This document shows positions 17,387 to 18,476 of a stretch of 32,000 nucleotides of DNA, piece after piece. Below the pieces are notes generated by a model. The model was not told the origin of the DNA. It saw only the letters and a list, made by a program, of their open reading frames with translations, and did not search any database. Both the position numbers and the translations under genes were made by a program. The stretch comes from Bdellovibrionales bacterium. GTDB taxonomy: Bacteria; Bdellovibrionota; Bdellovibrionia; Bdellovibrionales; UBA1609. Location: contig OY843585.1 of assembly GCA_963692945.1 (NCBI GenBank), positions 900,001-932,000 on the forward strand, written 5' to 3'. The number at the start of each line of letters is the position of its first letter. Position 1 is the first letter of the stretch.

Positions 17387-17758
17387 TGTTTGTGAAAACC
17401 AGTAGGTTTTCTCTAGTTTTAAATCTTTTATTTTCACGAGATTTGAAGAACAAAACCCTTCATGCGAAAAACAGAAGTTTTTCTCTATGAAACTCTACTT
17501 ATTTTCTGAACTTGAAGAGTGTCCCTCTTACGATGAAAGGTCAGAAAAGTAATGAAGCGAAAAACAGAAGTTTTTATCTAGATCAAATATAAGTCTATTA
17601 AACAACTCTTACTTTAACGAGATTTGAAGAGCAAAACTCTATATGCAAAAACCGTATGCGAAAAACAGAAGTTTTTCTCTATGAAACTCTACTTATTTTC
17701 TGAACTTGAAGAGTGTCCCTCTTACGATGAAAGGTCAGAAAATAAGTAGAGTAACACT
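17387..17758. repeat. structured short-repeat block B (parallels block A)
   Basis: Hairpins GAAAACC-AGTA-GGTTTTC at 17393-17410 and GAAAAAC-AGAA-GTTTTTC at 17465-17482, 17558-17574 and 17659-17676. Core modules lie at about 17503-17545 and 17697-17739. Roughly 17443-17550 is repeated at 17622-17745. Confidence 0.75.
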
Positions 17759-17761
17759 AGA

Positions 17762-17955
17762 GTTTTGTAAATGGCGGAGAGAGGGGGATTCGCCTACTAC
17801 ATTCGTTCGCATCCAGCTCACTCATTGCGTAGGCTCACCTCAGTCACTAAGAAAAACATCCTGTTTTTCTTCCCTGTATCACTTACTCCTAAAGTCGCAA
17901 GTGATTTGCTCCTAAAGTCGCAAGTAACACAGGTCGTTCCTTCGTTTCGAATCCT
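17762..17955. repeat. tRNA-Ser-3'-end-containing repeat unit, copy 1 (att-like scar)
   Basis: It carries a 21-nt perfect copy (17772-17792, TGGCGGAGAGAGGGGGATTCG) of the tRNA-Ser gene's T-loop-to-CCA end, then about 170 bp shared with copy 2. There is an internal duplication of CTCCTAAAGTCGCAAGT. Confidence 0.75.
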
Positions 17956-18045
17956 GCACCAACTCATTCAACAAACAAGGCTAGAGAGAACAAAAAACAG
18001 CAAAGTTAAAACTTTACTTTTTTTGTTCTTATAGGTTTTGATTGT

Positions 18046-18216
18046 GTTTTGTAAATGGCGGAGAGAGGGGGATTCGCCTACTACATTCGTTCGCATCCAG
18101 CTCACTCATTGCGTAGGCTCACCTCAGTCACTAAGAAAAACATCCTGTTTTTCTTCCCTGTATCACCTGCTCCTAAAGTCGCAAGTAACACAGGTCGTTC
18201 CTTCGTTTCGAATCCT
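18046..18216. repeat. tRNA-Ser-3'-end-containing repeat unit, copy 2 (att-like scar)
   Basis: The 21-nt tRNA-Ser 3' fragment lies at 18056-18076. The following sequence is near-identical to copy 1, including hairpin AAGAAAAACA-TCC-TGTTTTTCTT (18133-18155) and the GCCTAC...GTAGGC inverted repeat. Confidence 0.75.
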
Positions 18217-18314
18217 CAACCTCTACCTATTTAAAGCAGTAATAAATTAAAAAAATAGAAAGCATTCGCTTCCCCTTTTTTTAATTTAGTAAATATTTAT
18301 TTTTCCGTTTAAAA

Positions 18315-18404
18315 TGGCGGAGAGAGGGGGATTCGAACCCCCGAGACGGGTTACCGCCTATACGCTTTCCAAGCGCACGCCTTCAGCCACTCGGCCACCT
18401 CTCC
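18315..18404 (-). tRNA. tRNA-Ser (anticodon GGA), CCA encoded
   Basis: The reverse complement folds as GGAGAGG-TG-GCC..GGC, anticodon arm TGCGC-TTGGAAA-GCGTA, a long variable arm (class II), T arm GGGGG-TTCGAAT-CCCCC, acceptor TCTCTCC, then discriminator G and CCA. Length is 90 nt. Confidence 0.92.
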
Positions 18405-18476
18405 CTTTTGATTTTCTACAATAAAGCGTCCTTTTTTCAAAATCTCCTCTTTTATAAAAATCTACTAAACAATTTT

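Follow-up and report, generated by a model that had tools for sequence, protein, structure and literature searches.

Two nested structured repeats behind a tRNA-Ser gene of a Bdellovibrionales bacterium are probable members of a phylum-wide, tRNA-linked RNA family

The stretch of DNA analysed here (32,000 nucleotides, hereafter the window; positions 900,001 to 932,000 of contig OY843585.1 in the assembly GCA_963692945.1 of a Bdellovibrionales bacterium) carries an intact tRNA-Ser(GGA) gene and, immediately behind it, two copies of a structured repeat that we call unit A (proximal) and unit B (distal). The tRNA gene lies on the minus strand at 18315..18404 (ARAGORN; 53.5 bits with the Rfam tRNA model), in agreement with a preliminary description that had placed an intact tRNA-Ser on that strand with its 3' end at 18315. 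The same description had noticed that the last 21 nt of the gene recur twice nearby, and this proved exact: the 21-mer TGGCGGAGAGAGGGGGATTCG occurs at 17772-17792, 18056-18076 and 18315-18335 with 0 mismatches, for a chance expectation of 0.00, and was found nowhere else in the window even when 3 mismatches were allowed. The identity extends to 24 nt (AAATGG...; repeat finder), and the repeated segment, here called the tail, corresponds to the last 21 nt of tRNA-Ser(GGA) (C56 to A76) plus TTT. The likeness of the two copies beyond the tail was borne out as well; they are 99% identical over 141 nt (17762-17902 versus 18046-18186) and 96% identical over a further 54 nt, the internal duplication already remarked on in the distal copy being 23 nt long and lying between these two matches. 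Both copies contain the GCCTAC..GTAGGC stem and the hairpin AAGAAAAACA-TCC-TGTTTTTCTT (at 17849-17871 and 18133-18155).

Read in the direction of the tRNA gene, each unit consists of a spacer, a short segment antisense to the T-loop (the anti-T), a structured core and a tail, all on the minus strand. The spacer of unit A, of a type designated T1, occupies 18218..18314 (alignment of eight loci) and contains a weak terminator-like hairpin followed by a T-run (18257-18274; 7 pairs, 3 of them G-C; a pattern match). In the same alignment six different tRNA genes of the genome have a near-identical T1 spacer behind them, and this spacer is therefore part of the repeated element. The anti-T, GGATTCGAA at 18207..18215, is the reverse complement of the T-loop of tRNA-Ser(GGA), TTCGAATCC, giving a 9-nt match to the local tRNA. 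The core at 18077..18206, supported by a covariance-model match (18058-18217, 162.3 bits) and by the consensus fold and its covariation, has a fold z-score of -4.6 on the minus strand and comprises, in order, the junction GAAACGAAGGAACGAC, hairpins H1 (~18158-18195) and H2 (18133-18155, loop AGGAU), the junction CUGAGGUGA and hairpin H3 (~18076-18118). Tail copy 1, at 18046..18076, runs from C56 of tRNA-Ser to CCA (18056-18076) and on through TTTACAAAAC (repeat finder); its first 24 nt duplicate the end of the tRNA and bound unit A, and all of its 31 nt recur at 17762-17792, where they bound unit B.

Unit B has the same plan. Its spacer (17958..18045), of a second type, T2, with an A-run, a hairpin and a T-run, was recognised by alignment and by a sister relation in the tree described below, and is common to the unit behind tRNA-Gln. 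The anti-T, GCAGGATTCGAA at 17946..17957, fits tRNA-Gln, Arg-tct and Arg-cct over 12 nt and the local tRNA-Ser over 9 nt. The core at 17793..17945 (covariance-model match 17774-17956, 151.1 bits) equals that of unit A except for the 23-nt internal duplication, which lies in the loop region of H1 (ACTTGCGACTTTAGGAGCAAATC type). Tail copy 2, at 17762..17792 (repeat finder), again consists of tRNA-Ser sequence from C56 to CCA (17772-17792) plus TTTACAAAAC, and is presumably the original 3' end region of tRNA-Ser, displaced by two insertions. Each unit is thus a ~235-285-bp insertion behind tRNA-Ser(GGA), in which the structured repeat part accounts for ~160 nt, with its left end 3-10 nt beyond the tRNA's 3' end and its right end joined to C56 of the duplicated tail. 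Just upstream of the tRNA gene, a promoter-like site (TTGAAA-18-GAAAAT, 18411..18440, minus strand; a pattern match only, from a consensus scan) presumably serves both the tRNA and read-through into the two units; the same scan of the region, again as a match of patterns only, gave no further promoter-like site ahead of unit A or unit B.

The unit is not a peculiarity of this locus. In the genome to which the window belongs (the window genome; 1.56 Mb, 31.7% GC, 35 tRNA and tmRNA genes) a sequence search gave about a dozen copies of the unit, at 8 loci, and the covariance model found 11 full or partial units; the copies follow 7 tRNA types, the host tRNAs being Ser-GCT, Asn (two units), Ser-TGA, Gln, Ser-GGA (two units), two Met and Tyr. 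Every copy from the sequence search lay just behind a co-oriented tRNA, the first one mostly 74-77 nt past it; units in general begin 0-10 nt after the tRNA, often with the weak-terminator spacer. The preliminary description had set its own interpretation against a generic repeat dispersed without linkage to tRNA genes; what we found is a unit that is dispersed yet always tRNA-linked. Nor is the tail a feature of tRNA-Ser, because in the alignment it is elsewhere a copy of whichever tRNA lies upstream: in the aligned loci it equals the last 21-24 nt of that tRNA, always from T-loop position C56, and the 5' end of the unit, GGAYTYGAA, is the reverse complement of the T-loop of the upstream tRNA (eight loci). 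The tail matched the local tRNA 3' end in all 17 of the first 17 loci examined, and was intact (>=16 nt) in 60 of 84 units overall. The length of the tail duplication ranges from 19 to ~60 nt, with one end fixed at C56.

Beyond this genome, three related genomes carried diverged copies (72-84% identity), in each of which the final 18 nt of its own tRNA are repeated without a mismatch; the tRNAs concerned are those for Trp, His, Ala, Met, Arg, Pro and Ser. A degenerate pattern of the core, run on public genomes, matched almost only metagenome-assembled genomes (MAGs) of Bdellovibrionales and Bacteriovoracaceae, 113-255 nt behind a co-oriented tRNA. Within the GTDB family the covariance model found units in 31 of the 109 genomes and 12 of the 35 genera; in a sample of 151 genomes from the whole phylum, 23 had units, and these represented eight GTDB families. 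A closed 1.4-Mb relative gave up to 26 matches, behind ~20 different tRNA genes, and three closed genomes of ~3.7-4.0 Mb from the same order have a single unit apiece. A co-oriented tRNA lay <=1 kb upstream of 90 of the 96 matches, which covered 27 anticodon types, the other 6 being at locus edges or behind tRNAs not called by ARAGORN. Units occur singly or in tandem (two in the window, arrays of two to three elsewhere), the period of an array being tail plus spacer plus core. Distant members retain the tRNA and the anti-T, and among the family genomes and sampled relatives the core has invariant loop and junction nucleotides across at least 8 GTDB families.

Some copies depart from this plan. 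A tandem array with a period of ~213 nt at G000:C1:1004691-1005380 (G000 being the window genome) matched only the H1-H2 part of the model (31-33 bits) and sits upstream, not downstream, of tRNA-Gly-GCC. In the unit behind tRNA-Met 973079 (G000:C1:972765-972931) the 23-nt H1-loop segment CAAATCACTTGCGACTTTAGGAG is present in ~eight tandem copies, multiplying a GGA-bearing mini-hairpin. At three loci of the relative G112 (L139, L143 and L146; tRNA-Met, Arg-TCT and Met) the tail ends after the T-loop (CRARTCC) and a common hairpin, CTTCAAAGACACACAAAGTGTCTTTGAAG, takes its place, perhaps an additional small element or a different kind of 3' module; the anti-T of these units still fits the tRNA over 12-13 nt. 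Nearly identical GC-rich cores were found behind tRNA-Phe and tRNA-Met in a MAG labelled 'Deltaproteobacteria' (L062, JACQAW01) and one labelled 'candidate division WWE3' (L065, JBBRLF01), each with a 13-14-nt anti-T fitting its own tRNA, a likeness across differently binned phyla that points to mis-binning or horizontal transfer.

The fold was first derived with MAFFT and RNAalifold from 27 units and formed the basis of the covariance model, whose 96 matches comprised 85 distinct units. In this fold the anti-T pairs with the T-loop portion of the tail as a closing helix, P1, and there are three hairpins: H1, which is long, H2, of 9 bp and with its loop conserved, and H3, which bears tandem G·A motifs. 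Covariation is likewise seen in P2, an inner helix that joins the two junction strands. Compensatory changes were present in 33 of 41 pairs in the 27 sequences. In the 85 distinct units 95.7% of cells were paired, compared with 38-50% when partners were slid, and double changes occurred in 39 of the 41 pairs, values that were matched by no shuffle; the alignment of the 85 was fitted to the model and so favours structure, but the independent MAFFT/RNAalifold result agrees with it. The unusually strong covariation of the core thus identifies it, as far as sequence comparison can, as a genuine structured RNA. On the tRNA-sense strand G·U pairs outnumbered A·C mismatches by 56:4, so that this is the strand selected to fold. 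The bias differed between helices, being strong in H1 (79:5) and H3 (55:11) and absent from P1 (19:20); the core therefore behaves as an RNA or single-strand structure under selection would, and the complementarity of anti-T and tail as copied DNA would.

An Rfam search of the region at E<=10, which the preliminary description had proposed, returned only the tRNA and chance-level matches, and hence no family for the unit. The junction CUGARGNGA is only superficially like the CUGAUGA of the hammerhead, and with no Rfam match this or another known ribozyme was rejected. We also considered protein coding on the antisense strand, where each antisense tail supplies an ATGG from which open reading frames (ORFs) of 59-94 aa start, 56 of the 85 units being open along their whole length. 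This was ruled out, since 47% of shuffles were also open, the frame is inconsistent relative to landmarks and the spacing of landmarks is not in multiples of three; the antisense frames are open because the sense strand is purine-rich. The window itself has two such ORFs (17771-18034 and 18038-18250, plus strand; 70-87 aa), starting at the ATGG antisense to the CCAT of the tail, which gene callers could easily mis-annotate as small proteins.

To follow the history of the units, a tree was built from the cores with the tRNA-derived ends excluded. All units of the window genome formed a single shallow clade whatever their tRNA, whereas in genus g3 units at the same tRNA were sisters across species. 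Core identity between different tRNAs was 91% in the window genome, compared with ~70% in the relatives G112 and G011. The single shallow clade and the higher identity therefore argue for recent copying between loci, and the sequences show, by this comparison, a module that was copied recently between tRNA loci in the window genome and that elsewhere persists through speciation. The distribution is patchy, a unit being present behind tRNA-Ser(GGA) in 3 of 10 genomes of the genus. No base-exact empty site was found at tRNA-Ser(GGA), the tRNA being present in all 9 other genomes of the genus with flanks too diverged. A clean pair of filled and empty sites came from genus g3: in G114 tRNA-Thr and tRNA-Tyr are separated by 7 nt, and in G112 they flank a 224-nt insert that has a spacer, an anti-T and a core and closes with 25 nt of Thr tail (C56 to +7), so that the unit is inside a tRNA operon.

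In the window the duplications are nested, 31 nt (C56 to +10) bounding unit B and 24 nt (C56 to +3) bounding unit A; read in this way the sequence shows nested insertions, unit B first and unit A afterwards. Unit B is sister to the tRNA-Gln unit in the tree, and the spacer and the 23-nt duplication are common to both. Its combination of Gln-specific anti-T letters with a Ser-specific tail shows, on the evidence of these letters, derivation from the tRNA-Gln copy. The 12-nt fit of its anti-T to tRNA-Gln, compared with 9 nt to tRNA-Ser, therefore implies that on copying the tail becomes local and the letters beyond the T-loop are inherited. A truncated unit 877 nt behind tRNA-Met has a degenerate tail of tRNA-Tyr type, so unit and tail can also be copied together.

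The behaviour of the anti-T bears on how this copying might work. Across units it is an antisense copy of the T-arm of the upstream tRNA, 9-22 nt long, and in the window genome it fits the local T-loop in 9 of 9 units, at the two variable positions of the loop. Tails were decayed or truncated in 24 of 84 units, and in 23 of these 24 the anti-T fitted the upstream tRNA better than it fitted its own tail. The length of the match rises with the age or divergence of the units, from 9-10 nt in the window genome through 10-14 nt in g3 to 18-22 nt in distant families, in whose lineages the anti-T is a full antisense copy of T54 to C75. This rise, together with the lack of wobble bias in P1, therefore favours a DNA-templated process by which the anti-T would be matched after insertion; a fixed guide or selection for an RNA helix fits less well. 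It is possible that the anti-T is selected for pairing with the tRNA itself.

Taking these observations together, we consider it fairly probable that the two window units belong to a family of tRNA-linked structured RNAs that spans the phylum and is of the same kind as the tRNA-linked repeats (TLRs) and RtT units of Escherichia coli, a judgement that covers their anatomy and history jointly with the proposals on expression and copying made below. The preliminary description had offered, as an alternative to its own interpretation, a small structured RNA or a miniature mobile element with a tRNA-derived end, and the results support this alternative. TLRs have been known in E. coli since 1978; to our knowledge their origin and function are unexplained. 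The present family is new but of this known, unexplained kind. It is not a member of RF00391, the Rfam family of RtT; common descent with RtT is possible but unproven. Several points weigh against the interpretation as a whole. Besides the model-fitted alignment, the RF00391 model (gathering threshold 45 bits) gave no match at E<=10 on the window region or on the loci L039 and L132, its scores for the RtT units of E. coli being 133-137 bits. In the opposite direction, the new covariance model found only two matches on the E. coli chromosome, both of them TLR units at tRNA-Ser(GGA) and in the correct register, but these were weak (12-14 bits) and arose partly from similar tRNA-Ser tails, leaving homology versus analogy unproven. 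The 9/9 fit of the anti-T at the two variable loop positions could equally reflect the choice of a target by base pairing. Finally, no integrase, recombinase or reverse transcriptase (RT) gene was found at any unit when the recombinases and RT of the window genome were checked, so that no enzyme is implicated in the copying.

With regard to expression, the layout of the locus and analogy with the E. coli RtT and RrB RNAs suggest that the units would be transcribed by read-through from the tRNA promoter and cut out by the tRNA-processing machinery, the duplicated tail presenting the same 3'-end signal as the tRNA. The copying could be a duplicative event at the level of DNA, for example template switching during replication, a part of the explanation in which we place rather less than even confidence. 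Such an event would use two landmarks common to all tRNA genes, the T-loop and the CCA with its T-rich trailer, after which the inverted repeats that the anti-T forms with the tRNA 3' end would allow templated correction, bringing the anti-T into line with the tRNA next to it.

Our best guess at a function, made from the loops of the fold, is a protein-binding small RNA (sRNA) whose conserved GGA-type loops could bind CsrA; a selfish module that is merely tolerated is nearly as likely. Of 85 units, 66 have a GGA in the H2 loop (CAGGAUG or CUGGAUG, similar to the consensus that CsrA binds) and 53 in the H3 loop, with 1-3 loop GGAs per unit. CsrA is encoded in the window genome and in 102 of the 109 family genomes, with or without units, and this near-universality makes its co-occurrence with the units uninformative. 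A bolder proposal, which we rate as improbable, is that TLR-type modules are ancient, cross-phylum, self-propagating RNA genes, each of which keeps an antisense arm (<=22 nt) against the 3' half of its own tRNA; the arm would be either re-templated continuously from the tRNA gene or selected to pair with tRNA or pre-tRNA, and the modules, far from inert, would act as antisense partners of individual tRNAs, controlling maturation, stability or 3'-end availability.

As an alternative to a tRNA-linked RNA family copied at the DNA level, the units may be non-autonomous mobile elements addressed by a guide, in which the anti-T pairs with the T-loop of a target tRNA gene or transcript and directs insertion by an enzyme acting in trans, the tail being a long target-site duplication. 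The recent spread within the genome, the fit of the anti-T in 9/9 young copies and duplications of variable length with a fixed end at C56 would all be expected of such an element, and the letters beyond the loop behave like a guide in being inherited from the source, unit B keeping the GCAGG of tRNA-Gln. We nevertheless think it unlikely. The units have no associated transposase, integrase or RT, and the genome's complement of such enzymes is limited to two Xer-like recombinases, an island integrase and a retron RT. Close relatives within the window-genome clade bear three variants of the anti-T, and a guide would therefore need to mutate before each jump; in addition, complementarity that grows with age, up to 22 nt, is better explained by matching after insertion than by a fixed guide.

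The preliminary description had interpreted the repeats as tandem attL/attR scars of integration into a tRNA 3' end from which the integrase has gone; in this view they would be attachment (att) sites or mini-islands resembling cis-mobilizable elements (CIMEs), left at a T-loop site of tRNA-Ser by tyrosine-integrase elements whose interior has been lost. One part of this stands, as the tail copies do bound two nested insertions behind tRNA-Ser. Direct repeats of the 3' part of a tRNA starting in the T-loop are the classic signature of this class of att site, and the units occupy the tRNA-proximal end of an accessory segment (Pfam context). The window genome also contains true islands of this type. 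A 20.7-kb island at G000:C1:835495-856340 lies behind tRNA-Leu(TAG), with a phage-type integrase gene adjoining the tRNA and, at its far end, a 16-17-nt tail copy followed by a repeat, R2, described below; islands at tRNA-Pro and tRNA-Met likewise end in T-loop-class tail copies. No structured core precedes the tail copies of these three islands, and the units are therefore distinct from ordinary integration scars. The phage-type integrase and two Xer-like proteins are the three tyrosine recombinases of the genome, and none of their genes lies at a unit. Integrases are specific for one attB, and a 91%-identical core behind 7 tRNA types (27 anticodon types overall), each with the tail of its own tRNA, is not what they would leave behind, nor is a unit between the Thr and Tyr genes of a relative's tRNA operon or a core with RNA-type covariation and a wobble bias on one strand. 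The scar interpretation is thus largely refuted, and we regard it as very unlikely.

A third possibility, a functional sRNA gene that accompanies each tRNA by purely vertical descent and co-evolves with it, with no copying between loci, would account for the sister relation of same-tRNA units across species in genus g3 and for a core so strongly conserved, with invariant loop and junction nucleotides, in at least 8 GTDB families. For the window genome it is contradicted by the single shallow clade spanning 7 tRNA types, by the Gln-type letters in the anti-T of a unit behind tRNA-Ser and by the Tyr-type tail of the truncated unit behind tRNA-Met, and the patchy presence within the genus and the filled/empty pair also speak against it, so that it now seems hardly credible.

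We give even less credence to a retroelement-like replicon of the form R (tail)-spacer-primer-binding site (anti-T)-core-R (tail), in which the tRNA would prime reverse transcription and strand transfer between tails would yield both new and tandem copies. The antisense segment of distant members spans T54 to C75 (20-22 nt), as a primer-binding site might, the presumed transcript has a direct repeat at either end, the tandem period equals tail plus spacer plus core, and the unit boundaries fall at expected RNA processing sites. However, the anti-T of the recent copies in the window genome pairs only with positions 54-62/65, which leaves the tRNA's 3' end unpaired and therefore unable to prime, and the tails include trailer nucleotides that flank the gene. 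The sole RT of the genome, moreover, is a type II-A retron defence protein (G000:C1:1379518-1381284, minus strand; 588 aa, an NDT-like domain fused to the retron reverse transcriptase), probably an anti-phage retron. A miniature inverted-repeat transposable element (MITE) or other derivative of a DNA transposon was rejected because the inverted repeat (anti-T plus tail) is tRNA sequence that differs at each locus, the duplication varies in length from 19 to ~60 nt, and the model matches in the window genome include no longer copy of the element.

The DNA beyond the last tail is occupied by copies of R2 (17451..17771, minus strand; BLAST), a dispersed hairpin repeat of ~115-130 nt (TTTACAAAACTCTAG...GAGAAAAACTTCTGTTTTTCGCAT) that lies in the window at 17451-17548, at 17640-17771 and at about 14621-14921. 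It gave ~90 BLAST matches genome-wide, most of them far from any tRNA, and is outside the tRNA-linked unit; this generic dispersion rules out the idea that R2 is the native trailer of tRNA-Ser. It looks like a family of the repetitive extragenic palindrome (REP) or bacterial interspersed mosaic element (BIME) type, or of terminator modules, and has a hairpin similar to H2 of the unit. Also in the accessory segment, which extends downstream of tRNA-Ser, are, on the plus strand, two paralogous genes for secreted-type proteins with a trypsin-like peptidase domain and five or six Sel1 repeats (13141-14589 and 16067-17386), the second with a 108-bp tandem DNA periodicity at 16800-17350 within the Sel1-repeat gene, and between them a gene for a NYN-domain RNase-like protein (15257-15886).

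Among known systems, integrative elements and CIMEs at tRNA genes resemble the units in that direct repeats starting in the T-loop bound the insert and that tandem accretion occurs behind one tRNA; they differ in that the units lack an integrase and are not specific for a single tRNA, the insert being a 160-nt structured RNA module. With sponge sRNAs of the CsrB/RsmZ type the units share GGA in hairpin loops and, at one locus, the multiplication of a 23-nt GGA-bearing segment, but they have only 1-3 loop GGAs each and the GGA is not invariant.

The closest likeness is to the TLR and RtT units of E. coli. The K-12 strain has 22 TLRs at ten loci, and the final 18-19 bp of each are identical with the 3' terminus of its upstream tRNA or rRNA (PMC8144298). 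Their function is largely unknown, except that RrA, RrB and RrF, which lie behind 5S rRNA, were reported to bind both Hfq and CsrA in vitro (Stenum et al. 2021, PMC8144298). Inspection of the E. coli units showed that at tyrT-tyrV each RtT unit (RF00391; rttR) has a 5' segment, GGGGAAGGAT, complementary to its tail, ATCCTTCCCC, and that in the Rfam consensus of RtT a closing helix and a tail accompany an inner helix around two hairpins. Tails are local in the RtT-type units at tRNA-Pro, Lys, Ser and Arg, and the units at Tyr, Pro, Lys and Ser have local complementary 5' strands; no such strand was found in the matches at the Arg locus or in the lys-val operon. In the units at lysT-valT and valU-lysV (L160 and L159) the 5' segment GATTCGAACCTGC is antisense to the 5' strand of the T-stem plus the loop, not to the 3' strand, and the register of the antisense arm therefore differs between TLR subfamilies.

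Both the E. coli units and those described here are 120-180 nt long and share the strand of the tRNA genes that they directly follow or separate; they come singly or as tandem arrays, and neither group codes for any protein by which it could be explained. Each unit terminates in an exact duplicate of the upstream tRNA's 3' end, of 18-19 nt in E. coli and of 21-24 nt in the window. The two groups also share a 5' strand complementary to the T-arm that closes the fold (tyrT, serX and proK in E. coli), a topology of closing helix, inner helix around two hairpins and a further 3' element, and similar junction motifs, GA.G.GAAG...CGAC and GAAGGG.GAGC. On the other hand, the tail starts at C56 in the units of Bdellovibrionota, compared with A58-T60 in E. 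coli, their antisense arm reaches 22 nt, their core hairpins are longer and heavily covarying, and they belong to a different phylum and can occupy up to ~20 tRNA genes of one 1.4-Mb genome, compared with ten loci in E. coli K-12. A TLR-like architecture is therefore present in a distant phylum and able to occupy most tRNA genes of a small genome. As young and old copies coexist there, nested insertions, a filled/empty pair and a copy with foreign antisense letters provide a comparative leverage beyond that available in E. coli, and the antisense arm can be seen to lengthen with age and to track the real tRNA even after the tail has decayed. Annotating the units would avoid their confusion with att scars, pseudo-tRNAs or small ORFs and, if the kinship with RtT is true, TLRs would be a widespread class of bacterial RNA that is unannotated outside the Enterobacteria.

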